Positions 3,676-56,764 of a stretch of 64,000 nucleotides of DNA are shown piece after piece; position 1 is the first letter of the stretch; each line of letters begins with the position of its first letter. The position numbers and the translations under genes were made by a program. The stretch comes from an uncultured Flavobacteriales bacterium. GTDB lineage: Bacteria > Bacteroidota > Bacteroidia > Palsa-965. The notes under the pieces were generated by a model. The model saw nothing but the letters and a program-made list of their open reading frames with translations, was not told where the DNA came from and searched no databases. The DNA is taken from assembly GCA_937974275.1 (NCBI GenBank), contig CALJIF010000055.1, positions 23,290 to 87,289 of the forward strand. The letters run 5' to 3'.

Positions 3676-3745
3676 TCCATTTTTTTACGCGTTGAACGGG
3701 CGAAAACAGCTATCTTTAGGACCTATTTCCAACAGAAAATAACCT

Positions 3746-4456
3746 ATGAATAAAGTAGTATCCGGAGCCGATGAGGCCGTGCGTGATATTGAAAACGGAG
3801 CCACCCTCATGCTGGGTGGTTTCGGGCTTTGCGGCATCCCCGAAAACTGCATTGAAGCGCTTGTACGCAAAGGCGTTAGCGGGCTAACGTGCATTTCTAA
3901 CAATGCCGGCGTAGATGATTTTGGCATTGGCCTTATGCTGAAAACACGTCAGGTAAAAAAAATGATTTCCTCTTATGTCGGTGAAAATGCGGAGTTTGAA
4001 AGCCAGTTGCTGAGTGGTGAACTTGAAGTTGACCTTGTGCCACAAGGCACGTTAGCCACACGCTGCATGGCTGCAAAATACGGCATGCCCGCTGTATGGG
4101 TCAAAGCCGGCTTCGGTACCGAAGTAGCAGAAGGCAAAGAATCACGTCGCTTTGCATTTCAGGGAGAAGAAGGTCACTACCTGTTGGAAACCGCCTTCAA
4201 TGCTGACTTCTCGATAGTGAAAGCTTGGAAAGGCGATCGTTTCGGAAATCTTGTATTCCGTAAAACCGCTCGCAACTTTAACGATCCGATGGCAGGTGCT
4301 GCAAAAATTACTATTGCTGAAGTAGAAGAACTTGTAGAACCCGGCGAAATTGATCCCGATCACATTCATATTCCCGGCATTTTTGTGCAGCGAATTTTCA
4401 AAGGCAACAATTACGAGAAACGCATTGAACAACGAACTGTTCGTAAGCGCGGATAA
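3746..4456 (+). CDS. scoA: 3-oxoacid CoA-transferase subunit A
   Basis: Strong similarity to ScoA/AtoD (N-terminal SGADEAVRDI..GATLMLGGFGLCGIPE, CoA-transferase family I alpha). Confidence 0.9.
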   Translation: MNKVVSGADEAVRDIENGATLMLGGFGLCGIPENCIEALVRKGVSGLTCISNNAGVDDFGIGLMLKTRQVKKMISSYVGENAEFESQLLSGELEVDLVPQGTLATRCMAAKYGMPAVWVKAGFGTEVAEGKESRRFAFQGEEGHYLLETAFNADFSIVKAWKGDRFGNLVFRKTARNFNDPMAGAAKITIAEVEELVEPGEIDPDHIHIPGIFVQRIFKGNNYEKRIEQRTVRKRG

Positions 4457-4479
4457 TAAACCATTATTCAAAGCAGACT

Positions 4480-5139
4480 ATGTTAGATAAAAACGGTATC
4501 GCAAAACGTATTGCACAAGAGCTGCGCGATGGTTATTACGTAAACCTCGGCATTGGTATCCCTACGCTGGTGGCCAACTACATTCCCGCAGGCGTCAACG
4601 TAATCTTACAATCAGAAAACGGCATGCTGGGCATGGGACCGTTTCCTTTCGAAGGTGATGAAGATCCCGACCTGATAAACGCAGGCAAGCAAACCATAAC
4701 GGAAATTCCCGGCACAGCATACTTCGACTCTGCACTAAGCTTTGGTATGATCCGCGCAGGTAAAGTTGACCTTACGATATTGGGAGCAATGGAAGTAAGT
4801 GAGGAAGGCGACATTGCTAACTGGAAAATTCCGAACAAAATGGTGAAAGGCATGGGTGGTGCAATGGATCTTGTTGCTGCAGCCAAAAACATTATTGTAG
4901 CCATGCAACACGTTAACAAGGCCGGAGAATCGAAGCTGCTGCCTAAGTGTTCGTTGCCGCTGACAGGCGTAGGCTGCGTAAAGAAAATTGTAACTGAACT
5001 TGCCGTACTTGAAGTTGTAAAAGGCAAGGGCTTTGTTCTTCTTGAGCGCGCTCCCGGCATTTCGGTAGAGCAAATAAAAAACGCGACTGCCGGTCGCCTA
5101 ATCATTGAAGGAGATATTCCTGAAATGCAACTTAATTAA
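4480..5139 (+). CDS. scoB: 3-oxoacid CoA-transferase subunit B
   Basis: ScoB/AtoA-like sequence (IAKRIAQEL.DG.YVNLGIGIPT…SENG), lying immediately downstream of subunit A. Confidence 0.9.
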   Translation: MLDKNGIAKRIAQELRDGYYVNLGIGIPTLVANYIPAGVNVILQSENGMLGMGPFPFEGDEDPDLINAGKQTITEIPGTAYFDSALSFGMIRAGKVDLTILGAMEVSEEGDIANWKIPNKMVKGMGGAMDLVAAAKNIIVAMQHVNKAGESKLLPKCSLPLTGVGCVKKIVTELAVLEVVKGKGFVLLERAPGISVEQIKNATAGRLIIEGDIPEMQLN

Positions 5140-5156
5140 GCCGAAACAAACATTAA

Positions 5157-7046
5157 ATGTGGAGTAAGCTACGCACCCTGCCATTGCTGCCGGCTGCACT
5201 GGCTCTAGCTGCAGTGATTTACATTGTGGTGCGGGCATGGACGATTCCGTTTACTTGGGATGAGTCGTTCTCTTGGCTCCTGTATGTACGAAGCGACGAC
5301 TGGTGGCCTGAGGTGAATTCAGAGATGTCAGCTAATAATCACTTGCTGAATACTTGGCTGATGAAGTTTAGTATTAGCAGCAGTGAGTTTTACTTGCGAA
5401 TACCAAATATTCTTGCGGGCATTGTTTATTTAGTTTTCGCCCTGTGTTTTTCGCGCCGCGAAGAAAATCCACTCAGGCAAGTGGCCGTTTTTCTTTTGCT
5501 GGCAGGGCATCCCTATTTATTGGAATTTTTTTCCATTGCACGCGGATACGGATTAGGTAACGGAATAATGCTGGCCGGTTTTTGGATGCTCTGGCGCTGG
5601 TGTCGGGATAACCACCTTCGAGATGCATTTTGGGGCCTTTCCATGCTTGCATTGGCTGCGTTTGCAAATCTTACGCTTATTTATGTTTTATTTGGTGCAA
5701 CAGCTGCTGTACTGTTGCGTTTGACTGCAGTTGCATCGCGTCTGCAGTGGGAGGCTAAGTTTGTGCGCATGCAGTTGGTCAGTTTTCCTGCTCTGGTTGT
5801 TGTGTTGCTCCTTGTCCCCTATTCCATGAAACTAAAGGAAGCTGGCGCTCTATTTTTTGGAGCACGTGGAAGCTGGTTTCAGATAACATGGCGTTCGTTG
5901 ATTGACCGGATGCTTTATGAGATAACGTTTCCTGCATTTTTGAAAGATTGCGGCGCAGCATTTTTTCTTATTGCGGCGATCATAGGCATTATCACAGCTG
6001 TTGTACTTCTTCTTAAGCAATGGCGTAAAGCGCTCAATGCAGATCAGTCGTTTCTAATTGTACTCAGCGGTGCCGCTGCACTTTCGGTATTCGGTCCCTT
6101 GCTGCAAAGTGCAGTATTGGGTACAAATCTCTTAACTGAACGTACAGCATTGTTTTACGTACCACTGCTCATGTTGTTGTTTGTGCAGCTGTTTCGATTA
6201 GTTAAAAACAAACCGAAAATTGCATGGGCAATTTATCTGCCCTTACCTCCTGCTCTTGCTTTATTTCCCTTCGTCCTTAATCTTTCTTATCAACGCGACT
6301 GGCCATATGAACGCACGATGAATGAAATTGCTGCCGAAATAAATGCATTGGCGAAAAAAGAAATGATTGTGGCAGGTATTGAAATGCAATTTTTTCCTAA
6401 TCTGAATTACCTCCGGAGCACAGACAGGATTTCGCAAAACGCAGGAATTCATGAAATAAAGAGTCCTTTGACACCTTACCAGTGGTTACTTATTTATTCT
6501 CGTGATAAGAACAAATATCCGGGTTACCGACTCTATAAAACGCTAAATGAGGGAAAGGTTTTACTCATGCAGAATAAATCGTTCAATTCAGTGTCCGATT
6601 GGGCCTTGATTGAAGAGAACTTTGATCGGCCAACCTACAAACAAGCAGTGGTAAATATTTCAGGGACACCCCACGGCACGAGCAATGTGTTATTTGGCGG
6701 TGCCGGAGAAGTATATCCTTACACAAAAAAGTTTGCCATTCCGGATTCGCTCGATGACAAATACTTGCATATTTCCACTCATCTGGATGCATATCGGGCG
6801 CAGTCGCATTTTGGCGCATCAATTCTGTATTACATCAAAAGAAAAAATATTGAACATATTGCGATGACTGAATTTAATTTGCTCAATCATTTACCGGGCA
6901 AGAATGCATGGAAGCATATATACACCAGAAATTTGCTGGACATGCCTGTTTGTTCAGGAGATACCCTTGTAGCTATGTTTTTTGTACGCTCAAGGGATCG
7001 ACTTTACTTCGACAATTTACGCGTAAGTGCGGGTGTAGCACAGTAG
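5157..7046 (+). CDS. GT-C fold glycosyltransferase, ArnT/PMT (GT39/GT83)-like polytopic membrane protein
   Basis: 629 aa with about 10 or more TM helices. An acidic D-E motif sits in the first extracytoplasmic loop (TWDESFSW) as in ArnT/PMT. Only 18 bp downstream of scoB. Confidence 0.55.
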   Translation: MWSKLRTLPLLPAALALAAVIYIVVRAWTIPFTWDESFSWLLYVRSDDWWPEVNSEMSANNHLLNTWLMKFSISSSEFYLRIPNILAGIVYLVFALCFSRREENPLRQVAVFLLLAGHPYLLEFFSIARGYGLGNGIMLAGFWMLWRWCRDNHLRDAFWGLSMLALAAFANLTLIYVLFGATAAVLLRLTAVASRLQWEAKFVRMQLVSFPALVVVLLLVPYSMKLKEAGALFFGARGSWFQITWRSLIDRMLYEITFPAFLKDCGAAFFLIAAIIGIITAVVLLLKQWRKALNADQSFLIVLSGAAALSVFGPLLQSAVLGTNLLTERTALFYVPLLMLLFVQLFRLVKNKPKIAWAIYLPLPPALALFPFVLNLSYQRDWPYERTMNEIAAEINALAKKEMIVAGIEMQFFPNLNYLRSTDRISQNAGIHEIKSPLTPYQWLLIYSRDKNKYPGYRLYKTLNEGKVLLMQNKSFNSVSDWALIEENFDRPTYKQAVVNISGTPHGTSNVLFGGAGEVYPYTKKFAIPDSLDDKYLHISTHLDAYRAQSHFGASILYYIKRKNIEHIAMTEFNLLNHLPGKNAWKHIYTRNLLDMPVCSGDTLVAMFFVRSRDRLYFDNLRVSAGVAQ

Positions 7047-7112
7047 CTATACGGGAGTAGGTTTTTAAGGAAAAACCGCCGAAAACTCCTATCTTTCGAC
7101 ACCAATTTCCAA

Positions 7113-7841
7113 ATGAATACACCGAAAAAACTCAGTATCGTTATTCCTGCGTATAACGAGGCCGCCACTATTCATCTGATTCTCAACAAGGTGATTGCTG
7201 TTGAACTTATCCAGAACATGACCAAGGAGATTGTCATAGTAAATGATTGCTCTAAGGACGATACTCAGGCTGTGGTGGAAAAATACATAGCTGATCATGT
7301 CGGGCATGACATCCGATTATTTAATCAACCCTATAATCAGGGAAAAGGCGCTGCGTTGCATAAAGGCATTGAAATTGCCTCCGGCGATTATATCATAATT
7401 CAAGATGCTGACCTGGAATACGATCCGGCAGAATACAATATTCTCCTCAAACCCATTGTAGACGGTTTTGCCGATGTGGTTTTTGGTTCGCGGTTCATGG
7501 GAGGGCGTCCGCATCGTATTCTCTTCTTCTGGCACACCATAGGCAACAAGTTTCTTACTTTCCTTTCAAACATGTTTACCAATCTGAACCTTACGGATAT
7601 GGAAACATGCTATAAGCTGTTCGACTCAAAAATGATCAAATCGCTCAAACTTCGTGAAAAGAGGTTTGGATTTGAGCCTGAAGTAACAGCACGCATTTCG
7701 CGCATACCCAACGTGCGTATATATGAGGTTGGTATTTCGTACTATGGCCGTACGTATGAAGAAGGTAAGAAAATAGGCTGGAAAGATGGATTCCGGGCGA
7801 TATTCTGCATTCTCAAGTATAATATCTGGGCACGCAAGTGA
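7113..7841 (+). CDS. GT2 polyprenyl-phosphate sugar synthase (ArnC/GtrB/DPM1-like)
   Basis: [10 protein letters not shown]…[10 protein letters not shown]…[12 protein letters not shown]…VVFGSRF, with a C-terminal amphipathic/TM tail. Classic GT2 UndP-sugar synthase. Confidence 0.85.
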
Positions 7842-10177
7842 GAGCTTATTACCATCGTGTGTTTACCGATAAAGGACTGCTTCTTGTAATCGGAGTTGGT
7901 CTGTTACTTACTTTTTTTTATTTCGGCCCGTTGGTTACGCATCCGAGCTCTCGCTACTTTGGAGCAGGTGGTGACGGTATGCAGATTTACTACCAGACCT
8001 ATTACCACGTGAAATATGATACCGCGTGGTGGCATCAACACAGTATGAATTACCCCGATGGCGAGAATATTTTCTTCACGGGAGCCCTGCCAATGTATAC
8101 GAATATCATGAAGATTTTCGGATCCGGCGCTGCTGAAGCATCGATCGGTTTACTCAATCTACTCATGATATTTTCGCCGTTGTTTGGAGCAATTTTCTTG
8201 TACGCACTTTTCAAGCATTGGAAGTTGCCCTGGTGGTATGCCGCATTATGTGGTGTAGGTATTATGTTTTGTTCGCCTCAACTCGACCGCATGTTGGGAC
8301 ATTATTCTCTTGCTATAAGCTTTATTATTCCGGCACTGATTTATTCGTTAGCTAGATTTTACGATTATCCGAGCATCAGATTGAGTTTGCTCATGGGCCT
8401 GCTCATCTTCTTTGCTGCAGCGACACATTTATACATGCTGGTGTTTTGTCTTGCGGCATGCGGCTTGTATTGGTTTGTTTTATTTATCACACGCGACCGA
8501 GGGTTTAGCCGAGTGAAATTTGTGGCGTTGCATTTCTCGCTTCAAGTTGTAATTCCGGTTGTGCTGACTCAGGTAATTCTCCAACTCACAGATCACGAAA
8601 CTGATCGAACGTCTATTCCATGGGGCTTCGAGGTGTTTACTTCGAATTGGAGCAGTGTATTTTATCCTTATTGGCGCGTTTACGAAAAATATGTATCCGG
8701 CTGGTTTTTTCCTGAGAGCGGCAGCTATGAAGGAGCAGCATACGTTGGCCTTGCAGCAATATTTGGATTGTTGGTAATCGTGGTAATACAATTAATTCGA
8801 CTGATACGCCGGCGATTTGATTTGATCTTGAGAATTTCGGATAAAAAAGTACTTAATATACTTGTTTTGACAGCACTCCTTTTATTGTTTCTTTCATTCG
8901 GTTGGCCGTTTCTGTTAAAAGACGACGGTAGTTGGATCAAGTATGCCGGACCGCTCAGGCAGTTCAGGGCATTAGGACGATTCGCGTGGATGTTTTTTTA
9001 CGTAGTAAATATTCTTGTTGTATATAGGCTTTGGAAATTAGTGGAGCATCGTACGAATTATTCCGGCAAAGCGTTGCGTTGGTTGGTGTCCATTATGGTA
9101 CCGGCATTGTTATTTTTCGACACCTGGGGCTCAGCATCACATCTTCAAGAACGATTAAATAATGAAATTGTGGAGTTGAGTGATACACAAAATATTCTTC
9201 CTCAAAACGCCTGGCTTCGAAAAATCAAGGTGAGTGATTATCAAGCCATACTTCCGCTGCCATATTATCATAACGGCAGCGAGGGACCACAGCTTATGCC
9301 GGCGAACCACGCCATAATTAATATCACTTATATTATTTCCCTTAAAACCGGTTTACCCATGCTTTCCATGCTTTCCGGGCGCAGTTCACTTTCGAAAGCC
9401 GCCGAGCACATTGCGATGGTTAAAGATCCAGTAAAACCACTTAGCTTGCTTGCACGCTTGCCCGATCAACGACCTTTTTTGGTGATTGCGCGTAAAGATG
9501 ACCTCAATACAAACGAAGCAGAGATACTTGACCTTTCCGAGTTGTTGTTTGAAACTCCGGATTACACTGTACATCGTTTGCAGCCTTCAAAAATGCAGGA
9601 GCGTGTTGCGCAACAATATTACAAACACCTTTTAGCCTTTGAAGCACAAAAAACTTGGCCCGTATGGCCGTATCTAAGTACAGATTCGGTTGTAAATTTC
9701 TCTTGTCGTGATTTTGAAGAAGTGCAAAATTATGGGCCACCTTTTCGCGGGAAAAAGTCAATGAAAGTAAATGGTGGACGTTTCGTTTATAATGTACTTT
9801 ACGATGCCAAAGTAGCCGGTGCAATTCCCGGAAATTACAGCATTACGTTCTGGTTAGCGAATTTCGACCAAGATTTAATTGCACGATCCTACGTAGAAGT
9901 GGCAAGCTACACCGGAGACCAATTAGATACCGTGGTGTATGGGAATATGTTTGAATCTTGCGTGGCAATTTCAGGGCACTGGTCGCTGGAAGAAAGAATC
10001 ATTAACATCAAACATCCCGAACAGCGTATCAAAGTAACGCTTTTCAATTTCGATATACCCGAGAAATCACCCATATACATCGATGAATTACTCATCAAAC
10101 CTGTAAACACACAGCTGTTTGATGTGCAGAAGGATTCTATTCAACACAATAACCGCACCTATTACCGCAAGCCGTGA
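7838..10177 (+). CDS. large polytopic membrane protein, YfhO/GT-C-like with a C-terminal periplasmic domain
   Basis: 779 aa. The N-terminal ~430 aa are multi-TM with a [11 protein letters not shown] motif reminiscent of YfhO, and the C-terminal ~340 aa are soluble. The start overlaps the upstream GT2 gene by 4 nt (ATGA coupling). Confidence 0.5.
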
Positions 10178-10905
10178 CCGACATCAGTTTTGTATTGCCT
10201 TCATATAAAGGAGCTGCACAATTGGAGCAATCGCTGCCGTTATTGCAACAGTGGCTGAATAGCTTAGGGAAAACATGGGAAATTATTGTTGTTGATGATG
10301 GCTCGGAAGATGGCGGTGCTACAGAGGATGTTGTAAAGCGTGCAGGTTGCAAATTCATCGGTCTTCCGAAAAATATGGGCAAAGGAGGAGCTGTGCGAGC
10401 CGGTATGCGCGAAGCAAAAGGAATTTTACGATTGTTTACAGATTCCGATGTGCCCTTTGACGAAGCCTCGATGGAACGTTTTATACAATATCTTGAAGAG
10501 AAGCAATTTCACATTGTTATCGGAGACCGCACGCTGGAGACATCGCGTTACTTCACCGAAATTTCAGGAGCACGTAAACTGGGAAGTGGTATTTTCACCT
10601 TCTTCGTAGGTCGATTTGTTACTACCGGTCTGCACGATACACAGTGCGGCCTGAAAGGCTTTCGTGCAGAAATTGCGGATGATCTTTTTGGTGTTTCACG
10701 CTTAAACAGCTTTGCGTTTGATGTGGAACTACTTTACATTGCACTCAAACGCAACTACGATATCAAACGCCTTCCCGTTGTATTTAAGAGTAGTCACGAT
10801 GAATCGAGCGTGAGTTTGCTTAAACACGCTCCGGGGATGCTGGTTGATTTATTCCGTATTAAATGGAATCACCTTACGGGAAAGTATAACAAACGAACTA
10901 CCTGA
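10174..10905 (+). CDS. GT2 glycosyltransferase (dolichyl/undecaprenyl-phosphate beta-glycosyltransferase-like)
   Basis: SFVLPSYKGA…IIVVDDGSEDG…FTDSDVPFD…DTQCGLKGF. 4-nt overlap with the upstream gene. Confidence 0.85.
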   Translation: MTDISFVLPSYKGAAQLEQSLPLLQQWLNSLGKTWEIIVVDDGSEDGGATEDVVKRAGCKFIGLPKNMGKGGAVRAGMREAKGILRLFTDSDVPFDEASMERFIQYLEEKQFHIVIGDRTLETSRYFTEISGARKLGSGIFTFFVGRFVTTGLHDTQCGLKGFRAEIADDLFGVSRLNSFAFDVELLYIALKRNYDIKRLPVVFKSSHDESSVSLLKHAPGMLVDLFRIKWNHLTGKYNKRTT

Positions 10906-10910
10906 TACTG

Positions 10911-11606
10911 ATGAATAGAGATCTTACCAATGCCATACGCTATGTAATGGATGAATGGATTCCGCCGGTAGTGCGTGACAGCCGCTGGTTTATGTATCCG
11001 TTTTTCTGGCTTGCGTATCGTGGACGCAACATTAGCGAAGTGATGGATTTTAAAAGTCGTGTTTACAGCTTCACTCCGGAAGATTATGACCGCTTTTACA
11101 ATAATCTCAATACCATTTCACGCAACCGTATTACCGATATCAATAAGCCGAGCTTGGCCTTTATTCTGGATAACATTGATCCTTCAGCCGAATCGCTGAT
11201 TGATGTTGGATCCGGGAATGGTTATTTATTGCGTACTATTCGCGAACGTCATCCGAATCTCCAACTCACAGCTTTCGATATCAAAGACAAGGACGACTCA
11301 ACCGAGTACACTTACGTTAAAGGCAATATCGAACAAATGCCTTTCCCCGATAAATCGTTTGATGTTGTAACCTGCAGCCATACGGTAGAGCATTTGCTCA
11401 AGCTGGAGCAATGTATGAAAGAGCTTGTGCGCATTGCCCGTAAGCAAGTGTTCATAGTTACGCCCTGTCAGCGTTACTACTATTATACACTGGATGAGCA
11501 CGTAAATTTTTTTCCGTTCAAAGAAAAATTAACTTCTGCAATTCCACTCACCAAATACGAGTGCCATAAACTTAATGGCGATTGGGTATATCTTGGCAAG
11601 CCGTAA
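10911..11606 (+). CDS. class I SAM-dependent methyltransferase
   Basis: Motif I DVGSGNGYLL and motif post-I/II FDVVTCSHTVEHL, within the glycosyltransferase operon. Confidence 0.8.
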   Translation: MNRDLTNAIRYVMDEWIPPVVRDSRWFMYPFFWLAYRGRNISEVMDFKSRVYSFTPEDYDRFYNNLNTISRNRITDINKPSLAFILDNIDPSAESLIDVGSGNGYLLRTIRERHPNLQLTAFDIKDKDDSTEYTYVKGNIEQMPFPDKSFDVVTCSHTVEHLLKLEQCMKELVRIARKQVFIVTPCQRYYYYTLDEHVNFFPFKEKLTSAIPLTKYECHKLNGDWVYLGKP

Positions 11607-11618
11607 GCTTCATTACAA

Positions 11619-13208
11619 ATGAAACTCCGCATACCCCGAAAAGCGCAATACAATATTGCCGAGATAGTTTTTTTCGGCGTAATGCTGTTTGTTGTTGCGA
11701 TTCCAATCACCTCCGGGAATTGGTTTGTTACCGAGGACGGTGCTTCGCACAGTTACAATGCAGGTGTATTGTACAATTTACTTTCGGGTAATGATGATTT
11801 TCTGGGGCAGTATTACAAGATCAACACAGTGCCTTCGCCAAACTGGCTGGGGCACTTGCTGCTGGCCTACACAGGGCATTGGTTTGGAGTGGCAGCCGGA
11901 GCCAAAATTCTGCATCTCACCTATATCGTAGGTTTTGCCCTGGCATTCCGGCAACTCATGTTTACGGTTTCGCCGCAGCCGCGTTTAATGAGTTACCTGG
12001 TCTTTCCTCTAATTTATAATGAGGTTTTCCTTTTTGGTTTTTACAACTATTGTCTGGGCATGGTATTCATGCTGGTTGTAATGAACAGCTGGCTTAGGTT
12101 TGTGACAAACCCTTCGTGGTGGCGCGCGTGGTGGCTTTTAATTGCATTAACGCTGCTTTGGTTTTCGCATCAGCTTACTTGGGCATTTGCCGGGCTGTTT
12201 GTTTTTTGCCATCTGCTTTATCTTCTTATTACTCAAAAGCAGTTTTTTTCAGTATTAAAAAAAGGAATAGTTGCACTAGCGATTTCTTTACCGTCGCTTA
12301 TTTGTCTGTTTATTTACATGGCAAACGGAGGAGGAGGTTCGGGAATGCACTTTGTTACATTATCAAAAAGATGGAGTGATTTTTCAGATGGTTCTTTTTT
12401 TCGGATTTATTTTGGTCAGGAGGATGCACTGGGGATATGCTTTCTGTTGCTGTTAGCTGCGCTGGCTGTTGCAGGTGCTGTTCGCCATTACCTATTACGG
12501 AGAAGTTACGTTACGGACTTATCAAATCAAAAACTATTCTGGCTGATAATCTTTGTATTGTCTTTTCTGATCATGTTGTTTATGCCCGAAGCGATTGGTA
12601 ACGGCGGGGTGATCGGCATACGAGTAGTATGGATTGCTATAGTTTTTCTGATGATACTGGTAGCTCAATTTCGTTTGTCATCGCGTTTGGGGGCTGCCGC
12701 GGGTGCAGTTTCGGTATTACTTGGGGTGCTGCATATCGCTTATTTCAAACCTTCTTTATTGGATTACAACCTTGATGCACATGCGGCACGTGATGCCGGG
12801 AAATATATCCGGGATAAATCTACAGTACTTGTGTTGCCATTTACTTACAAATGGTTGCACCTGCACATTGGTCAATATGCCATTGCAGGACGCGAAGTGG
12901 TTTTGCTTGATAATTACGAAGCACAGCACAACTACTTTCCGATTGAATGGAATTACGAAAAACTGCCTCACAATTATCAGCTTGCATCATTAAGCTGGCC
13001 TGCGGTAACTTGTGCCTGGCGCTGGCCGGAAATGAAAAACAAACCCGCGAAGCAGGCAGATTACATTATGATTGTTGGCGATTTGAATAATGAAGGTACC
13101 GGCGATCCCGTTTGCCGCACAAAAATTTCCTGCGCAATGGATTCACTCGATTACAGGGCAATATTTAAGCGGAACGAAATTACGCTGTATGAGTATATGC
13201 CCGATTAG
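11619..13208 (+). CDS. polytopic membrane protein, paralog A (uncharacterised; possible GT-C-like)
   Basis: 529 aa with about 11 TM helices followed by a ~130-aa C-terminal soluble domain. Has an N-terminal DGASHSYNAGVLY motif. Clear paralog of the next gene. Confidence 0.6.
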   Translation: MKLRIPRKAQYNIAEIVFFGVMLFVVAIPITSGNWFVTEDGASHSYNAGVLYNLLSGNDDFLGQYYKINTVPSPNWLGHLLLAYTGHWFGVAAGAKILHLTYIVGFALAFRQLMFTVSPQPRLMSYLVFPLIYNEVFLFGFYNYCLGMVFMLVVMNSWLRFVTNPSWWRAWWLLIALTLLWFSHQLTWAFAGLFVFCHLLYLLITQKQFFSVLKKGIVALAISLPSLICLFIYMANGGGGSGMHFVTLSKRWSDFSDGSFFRIYFGQEDALGICFLLLLAALAVAGAVRHYLLRRSYVTDLSNQKLFWLIIFVLSFLIMLFMPEAIGNGGVIGIRVVWIAIVFLMILVAQFRLSSRLGAAAGAVSVLLGVLHIAYFKPSLLDYNLDAHAARDAGKYIRDKSTVLVLPFTYKWLHLHIGQYAIAGREVVLLDNYEAQHNYFPIEWNYEKLPHNYQLASLSWPAVTCAWRWPEMKNKPAKQADYIMIVGDLNNEGTGDPVCRTKISCAMDSLDYRAIFKRNEITLYEYMPD

Positions 13209-13307
13209 CCGTTAAACACGTCCAAACTTTGATTTTCCCTCTCATGAGTACAAGTTTAACGTAAGTATTTAATAAGAGTATCTGGTGATACTTAATTTAT
13301 CACACAC

Positions 13308-14906
13308 ATGTCTATATTCATACCCGAAAAATTGTTACGTTCAGACAGATTCAGAAACCGGATCGAAGTTATTTTCTTTTGCGGAGTAACTTTATTCCTA
13401 CTCAATCCGCTCTCTGCTTCAAAATGGTTTCTTACACTCGATGGGGCGGCGCACAGCTACAATGCGAGTGTGTTGTATAAACTTGTGTTTGGCAATGATG
13501 ATTTTTTAAATCAGTTTTTTTCAGTGAACACATTGCCTTCCCCAAATTGGACCGGGCATATACTACTAGCTTTTTTCAATGAATGGTTTGGAATTGCATT
13601 GGCAGCTAAAATTGTTCATTTGCTTTATGGGGTCGGACTTGTATTTGCTTTCCGTTGGTTGATGTTTGTAGTTTCTCCTTATCCGCGAATAATGAGTTAC
13701 CTGATTTTTCCAATCGTGCTGACTTTAGTTTTCCAGCTGGGGTTCTACAATTTTTGCTTTGGAGTGGTTTTTATGTTACTGGGAATAACTGCCTGGCTTA
13801 AGTATTCTCCTAGTACCCGGTGGCCCAATGTATTACTACTTCTAGTATTGTTTACTGCGGGTTGGTTTTCGCATCAGCTTTCTTGGTTGTTTACAGGACT
13901 TTTTGTGTTTATTTCTCTTACAGTTAAGATGATTGGTCAACGCAACCTCAGACAATTATTACAGCCTTTGATGATCGCGGTTTTCAGCTTTTCACCTTCA
14001 CTTATTTTTTTTACAATTTACACATTGGGGAAATCCGCATCTACCGGGTTTAAATTCGATCCGATAGCAACTAGGTTGGATTTCTTTTTCAGTATGCATT
14101 CGGCACATATACTAACACAATCCGTAAAGCCACTGTACGAATTACTAGCGGTAATTATTTTGGCGGTAATTGTAATTGGTGTAATAAATACGTACATATT
14201 AAGCAAGAACGCAAATAGGGAAGCGAGATCGTTGACTTTGCTTCTGGCAATATTTACTGCATTGTGTTTTGGTGCCGTTTTACTCTTTCCAGAAGAAGCA
14301 GGTGGTGGCGGAATTTTTGGTGTACGAGTAGAGTGGATTACTTGGATTTTTTTGCTGGTGATTGTTGCCAGATTGCGATATCCAAAGCAGTGGCTGTATT
14401 CCTTCGCTGTAGTCGCCGTATTTATTACGCTTAGCAAAAATCTCCTGATAAAGGACCAAGCCGAACATTTGAATAACAATGTGCATGCTATTACTGAAGC
14501 AGGCAATTACATCCGCGAAAGGAGCACTATTGTTGTTTACTCCTTTTCGGATGAAGTACTTGATTTTCATTCAGGTGAGTATGCCATTGCGGGACGAGAT
14601 GTTGCACTGCTTAATAATTATGAAACCGCACAGGAATATTTTCCGTTAAAAAATAACGACTCCCAATTCCCCTATCGTTTTACCCTTGCTTCATATGATC
14701 CGCAGGAATTGCATTGCTTGAATGGATGGAAAACGGAAAAAAGTAAACCTACCCGACAAATAGATTATGTAATGTTTGTAGGTAACATCAACAACAATAA
14801 AGACACCTTGTGTACGCACAAATTAATGTCAGCAATGGACTCGCTCAATTATGAGGTCGTTTATAGGAAAAGACATGTTGTTCTCTACGAACATCAGCCC
14901 GAATAA
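13308..14906 (+). CDS. polytopic membrane protein, paralog B (uncharacterised; possible GT-C-like)
   Basis: 532 aa, alignable with paralog A along the full length (DGAAHSYNASVLY, SPNWTGH, MSYLIFP…). The C-terminal motif AMDSLNYEVVYRKRHVVLYE matches AMDSLDYRAIFKRNEITLYE in paralog A. Confidence 0.6.
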   Translation: MSIFIPEKLLRSDRFRNRIEVIFFCGVTLFLLNPLSASKWFLTLDGAAHSYNASVLYKLVFGNDDFLNQFFSVNTLPSPNWTGHILLAFFNEWFGIALAAKIVHLLYGVGLVFAFRWLMFVVSPYPRIMSYLIFPIVLTLVFQLGFYNFCFGVVFMLLGITAWLKYSPSTRWPNVLLLLVLFTAGWFSHQLSWLFTGLFVFISLTVKMIGQRNLRQLLQPLMIAVFSFSPSLIFFTIYTLGKSASTGFKFDPIATRLDFFFSMHSAHILTQSVKPLYELLAVIILAVIVIGVINTYILSKNANREARSLTLLLAIFTALCFGAVLLFPEEAGGGGIFGVRVEWITWIFLLVIVARLRYPKQWLYSFAVVAVFITLSKNLLIKDQAEHLNNNVHAITEAGNYIRERSTIVVYSFSDEVLDFHSGEYAIAGRDVALLNNYETAQEYFPLKNNDSQFPYRFTLASYDPQELHCLNGWKTEKSKPTRQIDYVMFVGNINNNKDTLCTHKLMSAMDSLNYEVVYRKRHVVLYEHQPE

Positions 14907-15004: not shown

Positions 15005-15634
15005 CTAATGCGGAACAATAATCTCGTTCGACTTAACCAGGCAGCCGGGAAGATTCCATTTTAACTTAAACTTTGAATAATCGACTACTGTTCCCGCACA
15101 ATTCAATCGTTGTTGCATTGCGTTCTTCTTAACAATATAAGCTTCGCCGTTCCAGATGACATTTAAAATCTTGTTAACGGCATTGGATTGCATAACAGAA
15201 GTATCAGTAGCGAGTCGCAAACCAATTTGATTGTTCAGCTCATCCATTACAGAACCTAACGAATCGGGTCGGGCGCCATCTTCCATTCGTCCTTTTTTAA
15301 ATTGGTGGTAATTTCCTTTCTCATGCGCAATTCCCAAGTTCTTCGCTGCATCCTGTCGTATTGACGTACCCAGTAAATACATCCAGTAAATGTGTCGGAA
15401 AGCGTCTAACTGTCCGCCGTTACTATCGTATAACACACCTTTTCGTTCCAACGAATCGCAAACAACGCGAGTACGTTCTGCACACCGTTTCGCTTTACCT
15501 GCTAAAAACGGATGAGCCATCACCCAACGTCTTTCGTATTTAGAAAGTTGTTTCAGTTTCACCTGATGTTGCGCAACACAGTTTGTGCTAACTAACGTCA
15601 GTACAAGAACAACGATGTATTGAATACCATTCAT
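15005..15634 (-). CDS. secreted hypothetical protein
   Basis: Start chosen at the internal Met that gives a signal peptide (MNGIQYIVVLVLTLVSTNCVAQ). The longer ORF to 15805 would overlap alkB. Confidence 0.5.
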   Translation of the reverse strand: MNGIQYIVVLVLTLVSTNCVAQHQVKLKQLSKYERRWVMAHPFLAGKAKRCAERTRVVCDSLERKGVLYDSNGGQLDAFRHIYWMYLLGTSIRQDAAKNLGIAHEKGNYHQFKKGRMEDGARPDSLGSVMDELNNQIGLRLATDTSVMQSNAVNKILNVIWNGEAYIVKKNAMQQRLNCAGTVVDYSKFKLKWNLPGCLVKSNEIIVPH

Positions 15635-15717
15635 ACGCAAGTCGAAGGTTAATTCGCGGAAAACAAAACCGTCTTCGAATCTGTTTACTTTGCGAATACT
15701 GCATGTGAAGTTACCAA

Positions 15718-16302
15718 ATGCATAAGATATCCGGTCAACATGAATTTGTCGAGTTTCGCGAACTTTTTTTCTCTCCGGAAAAAGCTGATGATTATTTGCA
15801 ATCATTAGTTCAAGAAGTGCATTGGCAGGAGCAACACATCACACTTTTCGGCAAGCAAGTTATGCAACCTCGTCTTACGGCTTGGTATGCCGATGTCGGA
15901 CTTTCATACACATACAGCAAAACTACCTTTCACCCGATGAAGTGGATTCCGATATTGGAAGAATTAAAAAACGTTGTAAGCACAACGATTAATACTCCTT
16001 TCAACAGCGTCCTCTGTAACTTATATCGCAACGGCAGCGACAGTATGGGTTGGCACAGCGATGATGAAAAAGAACTGGGATTAGATCCGATCATCGCATC
16101 TTTAAGTTTCGGTGCTGAACGTAAATTTTCGTTGCGCCATAAACAAACGCGATTAACTGAATCGTTGATACTTTCTCATGGATCTTTACTTATCATGAAG
16201 CCGGGTTGTCAATCGGTTTATCAGCATGCAGTGCCCAAAACGGGCAAATTGTGCGGACCGCGCGTTAACCTGACATTCCGCCAAATACACCCGGCGCAGT
16301 AA
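15718..16302 (+). CDS. alkB: alpha-ketoglutarate-dependent dioxygenase AlkB (DNA/RNA alkylation repair)
   Basis: 2OG-Fe(II) oxygenase signature (WHSDDE…RVNLTFRQI, HxD…H). Confidence 0.8.
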   Translation: MHKISGQHEFVEFRELFFSPEKADDYLQSLVQEVHWQEQHITLFGKQVMQPRLTAWYADVGLSYTYSKTTFHPMKWIPILEELKNVVSTTINTPFNSVLCNLYRNGSDSMGWHSDDEKELGLDPIIASLSFGAERKFSLRHKQTRLTESLILSHGSLLIMKPGCQSVYQHAVPKTGKLCGPRVNLTFRQIHPAQ

Positions 16303-18431: not shown

Positions 18432-18458
18432 AGGGCATGAAAAATGCCCTTTTCTTTT
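18432..18458 (+). terminator. intrinsic terminator-like hairpin overlapping the M1 peptidase start codon
   Basis: AGGGCAT-gaaaa-ATGCCCT followed by TTTCTTTT. The ATG at 18437 lies inside the 5' arm. Confidence 0.55.
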
Positions 18459-20866
18459 GCAGTCTTTTTATCGTTGCGTTCTTACACGCGCAGCAGCAAC
18501 GTCCTGTTTGCCACCATCGTCATGCACCCTATACCCATCACAACACACAACCGGCAGCTACCAACGAACGTAGCGACACGTTGAATGTATTGCACTACAT
18601 GATTCATCTGAACATGACCGATTTCACGACGAACACTATCGCCGGTTACACCGATGTTCAGTTGACTCCGTTAATGAATAATATCACTACGGTTTCGCTT
18701 GATTTGCTGGAACTCACCGTTGATTCGGTCACACTGAATCAGCAAAGCATCAATTACAGCTATAACGACACACTGATCATCGCATCATTGCCCAACGCAA
18801 TCAATGTGTCTGACACCATTCAATTGCGTGTGTACTATCACGGCAATCCTCAAACCGATGCTTCCGGATGGGGCGGATTTTATTATTCCAGCGGCTATGC
18901 TTTTAATCTTGGAGTTGGATTTGATGCCAATCCGCACAACTACGGTCGTGTGTGGTTTCCATGCTTCGACAATTTTGTTGAACGTAGCAAGTACACGTTT
19001 CATATTGGCACAAACAATAACCGAATTGCATATTGCAATGGAACATTAACATCGGATACTACAGATGCCAACAGTGTTCGGTGGAGAACATGGTACATGA
19101 ATGAAGAAATTCCAACGTATCTCGCATCAGTTGCTGTGGCTCCCTACACACAAGTCAACTGGACACACAACGGTGTTAACGGTCCAATTCCTATTGTATT
19201 AACTGCATTGCCTGCCGATACCACCGGAATGAAAAATTCTTTCGTGCATTTGCCGGATGCGATCGATGCGTTTGAAGCACGCTATTACCAACACATGTGG
19301 AATCGTGTAGGATTTTGTTTGGTGCCTTTCAGCAGCGGAGCAATGGAACACGCCACAAACATTGCTTATCCGCGTTTAGCAGCAAACGGTTCGTTGACAT
19401 ATGAAACATTAATGGCGCACGAACTATCGCACCATTGGTTCGGTGATTTGGCTACGTGCAGAACGGCAGAAGATATGTGGCTGAACGAAGGTTGGGCATC
19501 CTATTCGGAATATTTGTTTCTCGAATGGGTGTATGGCATTAACAATTATCGCGCAGGAATTTTAGCCAATCATGATGATGTTGTTCACTTTGCTCACTTG
19601 CGCGAAAACGGATTCCGTGCAGTTTCCGGAGTTCCACACAATTATACCTATGGCGATCATGTGTATTTGAAAGGCGCAGATGTAGCGCATACGTTACGCG
19701 GCTATATGGGCGATTCGCTGTTCTTCGCAGGATTACGTTATCATTTATCGCAAAGTGAATACAAAGATGTGAGTAGTGCGGACTTCCGTGATAACTTAAT
19801 TACGGCAACGGGCTTAACTTATCTGAACGATTTTTTCAACGATTGGGTTTTTAACGGAGGTTTTCCGCAATTCTCAACAGATTCCGTAACTGCATTGCCG
19901 GTGGGAAATTCGTTTGACGTTACTGTTTATGTAAAACAAAAGTTGCGTGGAGCTCCAAACTATTTTACGAACGTACCACTCGATTTCACGTTCTTCAGCG
20001 CGAATGGAGACACCATCAATGAACGACGATTTGTTAGTGGCCCTCTGGCAACATTCACCACTTCCCTACCCTTTCAACCTGTTTATACTGCCGTTGATTT
20101 CAATGAAAAAATATCCGATGCAATCAGCGATGAACATCGAGTAATCGGAGCAACCGGTCAGTTTGTGTATACACATGCACGATGCACATTAACAGTAAAC
20201 AACATCAGTGATACGGCATTGGTGCGAATAGAACATAACTGGGTTGCACCGGATACGATTAAAAATAACGTTAACAATTTTAGAATTTCATCCGAACGTT
20301 ATTGGAATATTGACGGCGTATTACCAACCACATTTTATGCAAAAGCACGATTATATTACGATGGAAGAACCACAAGCACAGCAGGCCCTTCCCAATGGTT
20401 AGATCACGATTTGATGCCGGTTAATCAAGATTCAATCATTTTGTTGTATCGCAGAAATGCTGCTGATGATTGGCGCGAATGGCCTTATTACACCAAGACT
20501 CGTATTGGTTCCGCGACAACTTCTAAGTATGGATATGTAGAAGTTGATTCACTTGCTTTAGGGCAATACACTTTCGCCTGCGGGGTTTCATCTGTAGTTG
20601 GATTACAAGAAGAATCATTAGTTGATAACGGATTTGTGATTTATCCGAATCCGGCAAATGAACAAGTTGTAATTACAAATTCAGATCCTGCAGTCCGGAC
20701 CGAAACAGTGGAAATACTGGATGCTCTTGGACTATTGGTTCTTTCTGCACAAGTTAATGCAAGCACTTCAGTAATTTCAGTTGCTGCTCTTCCGACAGGT
20801 ATGTACTTTGTCCGTATCACCACGAATCAAGGTGTGGAACTGAAAAAGTTGAATATTGTCCGTTAA
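18437..20866 (+). CDS. M1 family zinc aminopeptidase with T9SS C-terminal sorting domain
   Basis: GAMEH exopeptidase motif, HELSHHWFG…(18 aa)…WLNEGWA zinc-binding motif and a signal peptide. The C-terminal tail (…YPNPANEQVVI…MYFVRITTNQGVELKKLNIVR) resembles a T9SS CTD. Confidence 0.85.
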   Translation: MKNALFFCSLFIVAFLHAQQQRPVCHHRHAPYTHHNTQPAATNERSDTLNVLHYMIHLNMTDFTTNTIAGYTDVQLTPLMNNITTVSLDLLELTVDSVTLNQQSINYSYNDTLIIASLPNAINVSDTIQLRVYYHGNPQTDASGWGGFYYSSGYAFNLGVGFDANPHNYGRVWFPCFDNFVERSKYTFHIGTNNNRIAYCNGTLTSDTTDANSVRWRTWYMNEEIPTYLASVAVAPYTQVNWTHNGVNGPIPIVLTALPADTTGMKNSFVHLPDAIDAFEARYYQHMWNRVGFCLVPFSSGAMEHATNIAYPRLAANGSLTYETLMAHELSHHWFGDLATCRTAEDMWLNEGWASYSEYLFLEWVYGINNYRAGILANHDDVVHFAHLRENGFRAVSGVPHNYTYGDHVYLKGADVAHTLRGYMGDSLFFAGLRYHLSQSEYKDVSSADFRDNLITATGLTYLNDFFNDWVFNGGFPQFSTDSVTALPVGNSFDVTVYVKQKLRGAPNYFTNVPLDFTFFSANGDTINERRFVSGPLATFTTSLPFQPVYTAVDFNEKISDAISDEHRVIGATGQFVYTHARCTLTVNNISDTALVRIEHNWVAPDTIKNNVNNFRISSERYWNIDGVLPTTFYAKARLYYDGRTTSTAGPSQWLDHDLMPVNQDSIILLYRRNAADDWREWPYYTKTRIGSATTSKYGYVEVDSLALGQYTFACGVSSVVGLQEESLVDNGFVIYPNPANEQVVITNSDPAVRTETVEILDALGLLVLSAQVNASTSVISVAALPTGMYFVRITTNQGVELKKLNIVR

Positions 20867-27513: not shown

Positions 27514-28476
27514 TCAGCACAACTGCTCGATTATTTTCTCTACGCTTATTCCTTCCGCTTCTGCTTTGTAATTGCGCACGATTCGATGACGCAAAATCGG
27601 CTTTACAACAGCACGAACATCTTCCATATCAGGAGAATACTTTCCGCTTACAACGGCATGACATTTAGCACCAAGAATTAAGTATTGAGATGCACGCGGA
27701 CCAGCTCCCCAAGCAACATACTTGTTCACTTCAGGATCTGCGTTGGGTGTATTCGGACGTGTTTTAGCAACAATGCGCACCGCGTATTCCATAACATTAT
27801 CAGGAACCGGAACACGACGAACGAGATCTTGCAAATACATGATTTCATCTGTGCTCAACACCTTATTCACGGTAACATTGCGCTCAGAGGTTGTGTTCTT
27901 CACCACTTGTAATTCTTCCTCAAACGTCGGATAATCGAGCGATACGTTAAACATGAAGCGGTCGAGTTGAGCTTCAGGTAAAGCGTATGTTCCCTCCTGC
28001 TCAATCGGGTTTTGAGTAGCCAAGACGAAAAACGGTTGATCTAATTTATAACGCTTCCCTGCAGCCGTAACCGCGCGTTCCTGCATCGCTTCTAAAAGTG
28101 CCGATTGTGTTTTCGGAGGCGTACGGTTAATCTCATCGGCGAGAATGATATTGGCGAACAAAGGTCCTTTAATAAACTTAAACTGTCTTGTTTCATCCAA
28201 TATTTCAGTGCCGATAATATCAGATGGCATAAGATCGGGCGTAAACTGAATACGGTTATAGCTCAATCCTAACGATTGAGCAACAGTATTTACCAATAAT
28301 GTTTTAGCCAAACCGGGAACGCCAACCAGCAAACAATGACCGTTACTGAATATGGAAATCAAGACGTCTTTTACCACATCTTCCTGCCCGACAATAATCT
28401 TGCGAATTTCTGTATTAAGCAGATTATACTTCTCGCGGAAATAATTTACCGCTTCAACATCATTCTTAAACTGCAT
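27514..28476 (-). CDS. MoxR-family AAA+ ATPase
   Basis: Walker A GVPGLAKT and Walker B IILADEINR. The MoxR-like core is 320 aa. Confidence 0.9.
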   Translation of the reverse strand: MQFKNDVEAVNYFREKYNLLNTEIRKIIVGQEDVVKDVLISIFSNGHCLLVGVPGLAKTLLVNTVAQSLGLSYNRIQFTPDLMPSDIIGTEILDETRQFKFIKGPLFANIILADEINRTPPKTQSALLEAMQERAVTAAGKRYKLDQPFFVLATQNPIEQEGTYALPEAQLDRFMFNVSLDYPTFEEELQVVKNTTSERNVTVNKVLSTDEIMYLQDLVRRVPVPDNVMEYAVRIVAKTRPNTPNADPEVNKYVAWGAGPRASQYLILGAKCHAVVSGKYSPDMEDVRAVVKPILRHRIVRNYKAEAEGISVEKIIEQLC

Positions 28477-35062: not shown

Positions 35063-35100
35063 TTTCAAAAGACCCTGACTGAACGGGGTCTTTTATTTTT
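35063..35100. terminator. bidirectional intrinsic terminator shared by convergent genes
   Basis: AAAAGACCC-tgactgaacg-GGGTCTTTT, with T-runs on both strands (…tgtttc AAAA on the left, TTTTATTTTT on the right). Confidence 0.7.
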
Positions 35101-35800
35101 GGTGCTTGGATTCACCACCCATCAATGCATACTGAATCAGGTTGGCACCCATACGTAACGCTTTCAGTCGTGCATCGGGCGAATCATTATGAACTTCAGG
35201 ACTTTCCCATCCATCGCCCAAATCACATTCGAAATCGTAAAAACAAACTAAACGTCCTTGCCACACCAGTCCAAATCCTTGAGGTGGTTTTTTGTCGTGC
35301 TCGTGTACTTTCGGTAAACCATTCGGGAAGTCGTATTTCTGGTGATATATTTTGTGTGAGAATGGCAGTTCAATAAAATCCAGCTCGGGAAATACCTTCT
35401 TCATTTGCGGACGGATAAATTTATCCATGCCGTAGTTATCACTGATGTGAAGAAATCCTCCACCAATTAAATAATTGCGCAGGTTGGTAGCTTCCTGATT
35501 ACTTAAAATAATATTACCGTGTCCGGTTAAATGAATAAACGGATAGTTAAATAATTCGCTACTGCCAACTTCGACTATAGCCTGCTCCGGATTGATTTTT
35601 GTTCCTAAATTTTCATTACAAAACTTAATCAAGTTGGGGAGTGATGTTTCGAGATTGGAATACCAGTCGCCACCACCGTTGTATTTAACCAGTCCCAGTT
35701 GACAGCTGTATGGCGGAGCAGGAGAGCGAAATCCGACCAATAGCAGTCCCACTAACAAGATGGTGATGGCATGTAGCTTATGTTTTGTTGGAATAATCAT
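35093..35800 (-). CDS. DUF4159-like secreted protein
   Basis: Signal peptide plus GGGDWY…FIHLTGHGN…GGFLHISDNYGMD. Memory-based match to DUF4159. The start abuts the stop of the upstream sensor gene. Confidence 0.5.
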   Translation of the reverse strand: MIIPTKHKLHAITILLVGLLLVGFRSPAPPYSCQLGLVKYNGGGDWYSNLETSLPNLIKFCNENLGTKINPEQAIVEVGSSELFNYPFIHLTGHGNIILSNQEATNLRNYLIGGGFLHISDNYGMDKFIRPQMKKVFPELDFIELPFSHKIYHQKYDFPNGLPKVHEHDKKPPQGFGLVWQGRLVCFYDFECDLGDGWESPEVHNDSPDARLKALRMGANLIQYALMGGESKHQK

Positions 35801-56757: not shown

Positions 56758-56764
56758 GGAACTT

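Follow-up and report, generated by a model that had tools for sequence, protein, structure and literature searches.

The window analysed here, 64,000 nucleotides of contig CALJIF010000055.1 (assembly GCA_937974275.1, positions 23,290 to 87,289 of the forward strand) from an uncultured Flavobacteriales bacterium, carries a block of nine genes in which scoA and scoB are followed 3' by seven genes labelled p3 to p9. We consider it likely that this block is a multi-module periplasmic glycosylation locus dependent on lipid-linked monosaccharides. The initial annotation had read it as encoding two lipid-linked sugars, a methyltransferase and up to four periplasmic transferases. This is supported by the glycosyltransferase family 2 (GT2) identities of p4 and p6, by the glycosyltransferase C (GT-C) folds or homology of p3, p5, p8 and p9, and by the conservation of the block in relatives.

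In the proposed mechanism, p4 and p6 would work at the cytoplasmic face, each transferring the sugar of a nucleotide sugar to polyprenyl (undecaprenyl) phosphate, as their family membership suggests, and p7 may methylate a lipid-linked sugar or the finished glycan. The lipid-linked sugars would cross to the periplasmic face via a flippase that is encoded elsewhere or is not yet recognisable. There p3, p5, p8 and p9 would transfer the sugars to acceptors, with catalysis presumably involving an acidic residue in the first periplasmic loop. The evolutionary unit would be a GT2 to GT-C pair, such as p4 overlapping p5, and p6-p7-p8(-p9) would form a second tightly packed unit. The scoAB genes would be co-transcribed at least with p3, and p4-p9 probably also have their own promoter. 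The three-component logic of GT2 synthase, flippase and GT-C transferase is documented (PMC11127046, PMC8035078, PMC7389260).

The block consists of nine closely spaced genes

All nine plus-strand open reading frames (ORFs) between positions 3746 and 14906 were recovered, in agreement with the initial annotation. Full-length homologs of each ORF were found at E = 0 to 1e-200, which indicates that the nine ORFs are real genes and not chance occurrences. The GC content of the block (0.41-0.47) did not differ from that of the remainder of the window, and an identical segment was present on the JGI metagenome contig Ga0180391_1000942. The spacing was 17 nt from scoB to p3, 66 nt from p3 to p4, 5 nt from p6 to p7, 12 nt from p7 to p8 and 99 nt from p8 to p9, and p4/p5 (7838-7841) and p5/p6 (10174-10177) overlapped by 4 bp. 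The 66- and 99-bp gaps and the two 4-bp overlaps had been described before, but the sequence of both overlaps is GTGA (a GTG start codon overlapping a TGA stop) rather than ATGA, and scoB and p3 are separated by 17 nt instead of 18 bp. The p5 and p6 homologs in L002 (L### denotes the loci of relatives and P#### homologous proteins) are of the same lengths, 779 and 243 aa, which supports the GTG starts of both genes.

The four membrane proteins are predicted to be GT-C glycosyltransferases

The predicted structure of p8 (529 aa; 11619-13208) had a predicted local distance difference test score (pLDDT) of 95.1 and a predicted template modelling score of 0.94. Its structural matches were STT3B (17.4), Pmt4 (17.3), Pmt2 (16.6), ArnT (15.8, with 408 residues aligned) and AftD, and there was no Wzy, WaaL or transporter fold among its top structural matches. 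In the model, p8 is ArnT-like in overall architecture, with a transmembrane (TM) core and a small periplasmic alpha/beta domain. The adjacent gene product p9 (532 aa; 13308-14906) is a tandem paralog of the same GT-C family, shares 40% identity with p8 along its entire length (E = 1e-139) and carries all residues that are invariant in the p8/p9 family.

The predicted structure of p5 (779 aa; 7838-10177; pLDDT 92.3) comprised a TM core (residues ~1-440), a periplasmic alpha/beta domain (~470-600) and a C-terminal beta-sandwich (~605-779) resembling a carbohydrate-binding module (CBM). Its best structural match was AftA; it resembled AftA and AftD most, and Pmt4 and Pmt2 were among the top two or three matches. 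Since p5 carries the CBM-like beta-sandwich and is closest to AftA and AftD, its acceptor would most likely be a glycan chain and not a bare lipid. On the model, lipopolysaccharide (LPS)/O-polysaccharide, another envelope polysaccharide or a protein-linked glycan are the most likely candidates. The precomputed Pfam annotation assigned PF19830.5 (DUF6311) to P0026, which is identical to p5, and to 97 of 99 homologs. With the local Pfam copy, in contrast, PF19830 was not matched in p5 or in any of 38 family members even at E<=10; this mismatch is probably due to a difference in Pfam version or content. We found no paper that mentions DUF6311. The label YfhO (PF09586) for p5 was rejected, as it was matched neither by p5 at E<=10 nor by any of the 38 family members. 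Of the initial description of a 779-aa YfhO-like protein with a large periplasmic C-terminal domain, the size and the domain thus stand, and the family is instead DUF6311 according to the precomputed annotation, with a CBM-like domain.

For p3 (629 aa; 5157-7046), the assignment came through a homolog. P0015 is 28% identical to p3 (E = 6e-43) and passes the PMT_2 gathering score (31.1 vs 26.1 bits) through a region that aligns to p3 residues ~66-220, the conserved core of p3. PMT_2 (PF13231) was matched in six of 20 p3-family members (E<=0.01) and not in p3 itself at E<=10. p3 falls below the PMT_2 threshold but is homologous to P0015, and is therefore a divergent relative of the family rather than a scored member. 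The ArnT/PMT-like label that had been given to p3 holds in this indirect sense and fails as a direct PMT_2 match. The protein has ~9 hydrophobic segments in residues 1-375, followed by a ~250-aa C-terminal domain of unknown fold that is placed in the periplasm; no MIR domain was matched in p3 with Pfam.

A crude hydropathy scan found ~10-11 hydrophobic segments in p8 and p9, nine in p3, eight in p5 and none in p4, p6 or p7, which is compatible with the description of p8 and p9 as two tandem paralogous 11-TM proteins. All four membrane proteins have K/R-rich N-termini and acidic, K/R-poor first loops, and loop 1 is thereby assigned to the periplasmic side, where it also lies in known GT-C enzymes; the initial annotation had proposed a topology prediction to confirm this. 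An invariant or near-invariant acidic residue lies just after TM1 in each family (D35-E36 in p3, D46 in p5, D40 in p8/p9); the D35-E36 pair directly follows TM1 and was invariant in 20 sequences. Using hhalign, the three GT-C family profiles aligned pairwise over the N-terminal TM core at 92-96% (95.9% for the p3 against the p5 family). Collectively, the predicted models place p5 and p8 in the GT-C fold, and homology points to a GT-C type for p3 and p9.

The HMM searches that had been proposed as a check were positive for GT2 in p4 and p6, and neither PMT_2, YfhO nor Glucos_trans_II was matched directly in p3, p5, p8 or p9 (E<=10). For p8 and p9, an assignment to ArnT/GT83 was not backed by a PMT or PMT_2 match. 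Searches of PDB sequences with the p3- and p8-family profiles gave nothing significant, the best hit being EmbA at E = 0.7 for p8. As direct HMM matches are lacking, the family labels of the initial annotation could not be confirmed by the route that it had proposed. They had been guessed, and the GT-C identity of the membrane proteins is upheld solely by fold and transitive homology.

The p8/p9 GT-C family is large and uncurated

A word-indexed search found 25 relatives of p3 and 18 of p8. An exhaustive profile search with the p8/p9 alignment returned 10,277 representatives clustered at 50% identity at E<=1e-3 and 2,580 at E<=1e-30, and at least 150 full-length matches were at about 1e-99 or better. 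Ten sampled p8-family members had no Pfam annotation except for one DUF6541 match, and 20 sampled members were all named just 'hypothetical protein', in metagenome-assembled genomes (MAGs) of Bacteroidia, Chitinophagales or Salibacteraceae. With more than 10,000 clusters, near-absent Pfam annotation and no Pfam model for the family, p8 and p9 therefore belong to a large, uncurated GT-C family. The homolog list of p5 includes Hymenobacter, Saprospiraceae, Lewinellaceae and Prolixibacteraceae, and in the p5 scan of the genome collection no Bacteroides, Porphyromonas or Flavobacterium was among the named p5/DUF6311 homologs.

p4 and p6 are putative polyprenyl-phosphate sugar synthases

The two GT2 proteins, p4 (242 aa; 7113-7841) and p6 (243 aa; 10174-10905), matched Glycos_transf_2 (PF00535) at E = 6e-33 and 1.4e-19, respectively, and are predicted to be soluble or peripheral. 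The PDB entries nearest to p4 were GtrB (3e-13), PfDPMS, the Pyrococcus dolichyl-phosphate (Dol-P) mannose synthase (1e-12), and ArnC (6e-10); those nearest to p6 were ArnC (1.5e-10) and PfDPMS (1.4e-7). The nearest solved relatives of both proteins are thus exclusively polyprenyl-phosphate sugar synthases. Among NCBIfam models, p4 matched AglJ best, followed by PgfS, PpgS and ArnC, and p6 matched PpgS, the Dol-P-hexose transferase and ArnC, with every score below the equivalog cutoff. The top scores were 105 bits vs 325 for p4 (AglJ) and 49 vs 370 for p6 (PpgS); PgfS scored 64 vs 500 bits on p4, and ArnC 41-52 bits vs 529 on p4 and p6. As p4 and p6 lack a TM segment, they are closer to the short Dpm1/PpgS type than to GtrB or ArnC; the models for PpgS and the Dol-P-hexose transferase span 226 and 213 positions. 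Together, these comparisons suggest that p4 and p6 are polyprenyl-phosphate monosaccharide synthases at the family level, p4 putatively the hexose synthase that would make the first donor and p6 the synthase of the second. The two separate GT2 synthases named by the initial annotation are consistent with both PF00535 and these solved relatives. FpgA of Flavobacterium psychrophilum (PMC4293000), a 319-aa WcaA-like GT2, was considered as a p4 equivalent and rejected, as no sequence link was obtained.

The methyltransferase assignment of p7 was likewise retained. This 231-aa protein (10911-11606), a class I S-adenosylmethionine-dependent methyltransferase with an ~80-aa N-terminal extension, matched Methyltransf_11 (E = 5e-16) as well as Methyltransf_25, 23 and 31. 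No specific characterised relative of p7 was found among the family models and homologs searched. Source-database names for p4 and p7 were only 'hypothetical protein', 'UbiE-like methylase' or MAG labels, as they were for p3, p9 and the 20 p8-family representatives.

The gene order is conserved while the GT-C proteins diverge

The order scoA-scoB-p3-p4-p5-p6-p7 was kept in L002, L003, L007-L011, L013 and L019, with L012 truncated, and the gene-order check proposed by the initial annotation thus came out in favour of a conserved block. From scoA to p7, the block is found in at least eight further species. The order persisted while p3 fell to ~27-37% identity and p5 to ~40-45%. Across the syntenic blocks, identity was 79-96% for p4, 75-94% for p7 and 88-98% for scoB, and the GT-C proteins were far less conserved; p4 orthologs were 67-96% identical even where p5 was just 25-45% identical. 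GT-C copy number varied, with two copies of p3 in L003, L013 and L019 and two DUF6311 genes in L009. p8 was found only in the closest relatives, L002 and L007. In L002 (18139-19738) the p9 ortholog was split into two overlapping ORFs of 248 and 293 aa, which suggests a frameshift or decay, and L007 lacked p9. The tandem duplication of p8 and p9 is therefore evolutionarily unstable.

The pairing of a p4 ortholog with DUF6311 reaches well beyond the full block. A neighbourhood survey covered 72 GTDB-species loci with DUF6311. In 34 of them a GT2 gene directly adjoined it, distant families (Saprospiraceae, Lewinellaceae) included, and a p4 ortholog (>=60% identity) lay directly upstream of DUF6311 in 12, Saprospiraceae-type genomes among them. 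L017 has a p4 ortholog (69%) followed by a p8-family GT-C gene. L006 lacks scoAB; there, genes for a methyltransferase and a PMT_2 protein come after a p4 ortholog (68%), and DUF6311 is preceded by another GT2 gene. From this adjacency across loci it follows that the recurrent unit is a GT2 gene followed by a GT-C gene, and that the window combines several such units. In L006 a type II restriction-modification pair (N6_Mtase/Eco57I and a BsuBI_PstI endonuclease; 4171-6652) lies between the GT2-methyltransferase-PMT_2 and GT2-DUF6311 modules. Distant members of the p8 family are solitary, for example directly upstream of sdhCAB in L004 (10001-11569), L086 (6001-7566) and L087 (577-2142); the L004 gene also adjoins a divergently transcribed PMT_2 gene.

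These data bear on whether functionally unrelated glycosyltransferase genes merely sit downstream of scoAB through phylogenetic inertia. The full block occurs only in a related set of MAGs, the distant p8-family genes stand alone and the scoAB link has no obvious biochemical logic, all of which would fit such an explanation. However, the 4-bp overlaps and the 5-12-nt gaps are maintained, the order survives divergence of p3 and p5 to 27-45% identity, GT2-DUF6311 adjacency extends to Saprospiraceae and Lewinellaceae, and the GT2+methyltransferase+PMT_2 and GT2+DUF6311 modules recur without scoAB in L006. We regard inertia as extremely improbable.

scoAB is linked to p3, and p4-p9 may have their own promoter

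The first two genes encode the 3-oxoacid CoA-transferase subunits A (scoA, 3746-4456; PF01144 E = 1.3e-66; TIGR02429 242 bits vs a cutoff of 128.5) and B (scoB, 4480-5139; PF01144 E = 1.1e-48; TIGR02428 321 bits vs 243.55). p3 followed scoB within ~10-20 nt in every full block, and in the more distant L023, L034 and L073 a GT2 or DUF6311 gene lay directly after scoB. scoB was present in 10 of the 72 DUF6311 loci. The link to scoAB thus extends past the closest relatives, but most DUF6311 loci lack it. Speculatively, ScoAB may be connected to the block through its product acetoacetyl-CoA, from which the mevalonate route to polyprenyl phosphate starts. In L002 an Acyl_transf_3 gene (OafA-like acyltransferase; 8149-9309) is inserted between scoA and scoB, and L003 has a 102-aa ORF at the same site; the scoA-scoB pair therefore tolerates glycan-type insertions.

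TAnnTTTG is the consensus of the Bacteroidota -7 promoter element. A TATCTTTAG box resembling it lies ~27 nt upstream of the scoA ATG (3711-3719, plus strand) and would be the likely promoter of scoA-scoB-p3. A TATCTTTCG box in the p3-p4 spacer (7090-7098, plus strand), ~15-23 nt upstream of the p4 ATG, is a likely internal promoter for p4-p9, as its conserved position suggests. The regions upstream of scoA and p4 share the string CTATCTTTnG...ATTTCCAA. Nine syntenic loci have a TATCTT(T)/TATATTT box at the same position before p4, in an otherwise divergent spacer, and in L013 it reads TATATTTG, an exact TAnnTTTG. The TATCTTTNG motif was not enriched window-wide (4 matches vs 2.1 expected) and carries weight only because its position upstream of p4 orthologs is conserved. 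A sigma-70 promoter scan of the window gave 23 sites vs 30 expected and is uninformative for Bacteroidota, and no plus-strand terminator-like site was found in any intergenic gap of the block. We infer two nested units from these features, scoA-scoB-p3 and p4-p9, the latter with its own promoter and possible read-through. The earlier statement that the glycosylation genes are fused to scoAB therefore applies to p3, which is tightly coupled to scoB, and is tempered for the remainder by the conserved promoter-like box before p4.

The genes of the window leave several acceptors to be considered

The initial annotation had seen no GtrA-like flippase, and this proved correct across the whole window. 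The flanks gave no GtrA Pfam match, and no small ORF with >=3 hydrophobic segments lay within 40 kb of the block; the only such ORF in the window is at 54843-55313 on the minus strand. A UbiA-family prenyltransferase gene (50241-51101), ~35 kb from the block, may bear on polyprenyl or quinone metabolism.

There were also no sugar-modifying genes of the ArnA, ArnB or ArnD type, no deacetylase and no ArnE/F in the window. This argues against a decoration of lipid A or the LPS core of the ArnC/ArnT type, in which the GT2s would make the sugar donors and p8/p9 and/or p3 would add the sugars to lipid A phosphates or core sugars and thereby alter surface charge and antimicrobial-peptide resistance. 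In its favour, ArnC came first among the PDB matches of p6 and was also a strong match for p4; p8 and p9 are ArnT-sized with a TM core and small periplasmic domain; and tandem paralogs could target two positions. However, the ArnC equivalog scores are far below the cutoff (41-52 bits vs 529), four GT-Cs and a CBM-bearing enzyme exceed what this pathway needs, and STT3B and the Pmt proteins outscored ArnT as matches of p8. We consider lipid A decoration unlikely.

Alternatively, several of the GT-Cs may act in sequence on one polymer and so assemble or branch an envelope polysaccharide or lipoglycan step by step in the periplasm from lipid-linked monosaccharides, in analogy to mycobacterial Ppm1 with the PimE/Mpt/Aft/Emb enzymes. 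A CBM-like domain in p5, as in AftD, the presence of four GT-Cs vs two donors, and the variation in GT-C copy number between species, as expected for diversification of a glycan structure, are consistent with this. The window has, however, no primer or initiating phosphoglycosyltransferase, no polymer export genes (Wzx/Wzy/ABC) and no lipid anchor genes, and no such polymer is known in Bacteroidota. Polymer assembly, which overlaps the lipid-linked-monosaccharide locus that we favour and differs from it in the acceptor alone, is a tentative possibility.

Three genes for cargo of the type IX secretion system (T9SS) with a Por_Secre_tail domain lie nearby (57-2288, 18437-20866 and 47828-49966), as the initial annotation had noted. 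Such proteins would be acceptors in a system of the protein O-mannosylation type, in which p4 would make undecaprenyl-phosphate (Und-P)-mannose and the Pmt-like GT-C(s) p3/p8/p9 would attach it to Ser/Thr residues in proteins of the periplasm, the T9SS or the outer membrane; the next sugar would come from p6 and another GT-C, and p7 would account for the O-methylation that is typical of Bacteroidota O-glycans. The Bacteroidota O-glycan has a mannose-rhamnose(-glucuronic acid) core, with mannose at the reducing end and rhamnose next (PMC12871550). According to this 2025 review, the enzymes that synthesise the core have yet to be discovered, as have its flippase, the oligosaccharyltransferase (OTase) and the ligase; the pathway is similar to O-mannosylation in eukaryotes, and methylation of the glycans is common, at a stage and by enzymes that are unknown (PMC12871550). 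This gap, the eukaryote-like pathway and the methylated glycans all favour O-mannosylation, as do the PMT_2 relation and invariant loop-1 DE motif of p3, the placing of Pmt4 and Pmt2 within the top two or three structural matches of p5 and p8, and the cargo genes. No paper was found that identifies the Bacteroidota O-glycan core machinery. In contrast, O-glycosylation is phylum-wide whereas the full block is confined to a narrow uncultured lineage, and p5, with its CBM-like domain, would rather suit a glycan acceptor. STT3, AftA, ArnT and ALG12 scored about equal to the Pmt proteins, so that the fold does not discriminate the acceptor, and as the phylum is rich in T9SS cargo genes, their presence nearby carries little weight. 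O-mannosylation appears quite unlikely on balance.

A narrower form of this idea is that part of the locus (p4, the Pmt-like GT-C(s) and the methyltransferase) builds or decorates the mannose-rhamnose core of the Bacteroidota protein O-glycan. It may imply a eukaryote-like route in which Dpm1-like Und-P-sugar synthases feed Pmt-like transferases in place of an en-bloc OTase. We rate it as very doubtful, because the block is lineage-restricted and Bacteroides, Porphyromonas and Flavobacterium are missing from the named DUF6311 homologs. For a periplasmic glycosylation locus as such, the fold data do not separate ArnT-like, Pmt-like and Aft/Emb-like acceptor classes.

Several other features of the window were recorded. 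At 51295-58318 lie a 1467-aa ORF, a PorP/SprF gene and an OmpA/PD40 gene in this order, an arrangement that by analogy would be typical of a large T9SS-secreted surface protein with a dedicated PorP-like partner. On the minus strand, a MoxR-type AAA_3 ATPase gene (27514-28476), a DUF4159 protein gene (35093-35800) and a 1738-aa ORF (35801-41017) may form a Bat/MoxR-vWA-type envelope operon. A DUF6973 ORF (15005-15805, minus strand) and a 2-oxoglutarate-Fe(II) oxygenase (AlkB-like) ORF (15718-16302, plus strand) overlap head-to-head by ~90 nt as listed, and one of their start codons was probably mis-assigned by the mechanical ORF finder.

Discussion

Several observations weigh against the block being a multi-module glycosylation locus that runs on lipid-linked monosaccharides. 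Direct matches of p3, p5, p8 and p9 to Pfam or NCBIfam models are lacking even at E<=10. p4 and p6 lie far below every NCBIfam equivalog cutoff (ArnC, PpgS, AglJ, PgfS), and the hydropathy scan, which found no TM segment in them, shows that they lack the C-terminal TM helices of GtrB, ArnC and PfDPMS. No GtrA-like/GtcA or ArnE/F-type flippase gene was found anywhere in the 64-kb window. We infer co-transcription of the block from gene spacing. The p6-p7-p8 'module' is supported only within close relatives, since distant p8-family genes stand alone without an adjacent GT2 gene.

The block can be compared with known systems that use lipid-linked monosaccharides at the periplasmic or extracytoplasmic face. 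It resembles GtrA/GtrB/GtrC of Shigella and Salmonella phages, which add side branches to O-antigen (PMC11127046), in pairing an Und-P-monosaccharide GT2 with a periplasmic GT-C in adjacent genes, and GtrB is the best solved relative of p4. It differs in that it has no GtrA-type gene and that p4 and p6 lack the two C-terminal TM helices of GtrB. It also has two synthases, four GT-Cs of three families and a methyltransferase, and its GT-Cs were not matched by GtrC-type Pfam models. The CsbB/GtcA/YfhO and GtlA/GtlB systems of Firmicutes teichoic acid (PMC8035078, PMC7389260) share this logic, and have a large GT-C with a big extracytoplasmic C-terminal part comparable to p5. However, p5 fails the YfhO HMM (E<=10), the host is a diderm without teichoic acids, and GtcA is missing. 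From the ArnC/ArnT pathway of lipid A aminoarabinose the block is set apart by the missing Arn genes, deacetylase and ArnE/F described above, by the family models that were not matched and by its four transferases. Francisella FlmF/FlmK and Bordetella LgmABC are variants of the ArnC/ArnT pathway.

The Dpm1/Ppm1 and PMT systems of eukaryotes and actinobacteria likewise combine short Dpm1-like GT2s without TM segments and transferases of the Pmt4/Pmt2 type, which were top structural matches here, and p3 shares the loop-1 DE motif. In contrast to these systems, the block has no MIR domains, and p3 itself is below the PMT_2 threshold. Among mycobacterial enzymes, PimE, MptA-C, AftA-D and EmbA-C, fed by Ppm1 or decaprenylphosphoryl arabinose (DPA), similarly comprise several GT-Cs on one or two lipid-linked donors; AftA was the best match of p5, and AftD likewise has a CBM-like periplasmic domain. 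However, mycobacteria are of an unrelated phylum with an unrelated envelope, the genes here form a compact operon-like block, and there are no arabinofuranose/DPA pathway genes. The Pgf system of Streptococcus mutans (PgfS with PgfM1/PgfM2 and PgfE) also has a GT2 and more than one membrane transferase in one locus, and PgfS was the second-best NCBIfam match of p4. It differs from the block in the low PgfS score of p4 (64 vs 500 bits), in its epimerase, for which the block has no counterpart, and in its Gram-positive host. The block would thus be a multi-module, flippase-less, GT-C-rich version of the known periplasmic systems based on lipid-linked monosaccharides, with three uncharacterised GT-C families.

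Together, these results assign a fold and a probable activity to three families of membrane proteins that databases call 'hypothetical'. The architecture, with two synthases, a methyltransferase and four GT-Cs without a cognate flippase, is richer than that of systems with one synthase and one transferase. Its GT2 to GT-C pairs provide concrete, testable assignments of donor to transferase, and gene sets that combine Dpm1-like and Pmt-like proteins are obvious candidates for the transferase of O-mannose-initiated glycosylation in Bacteroidota.

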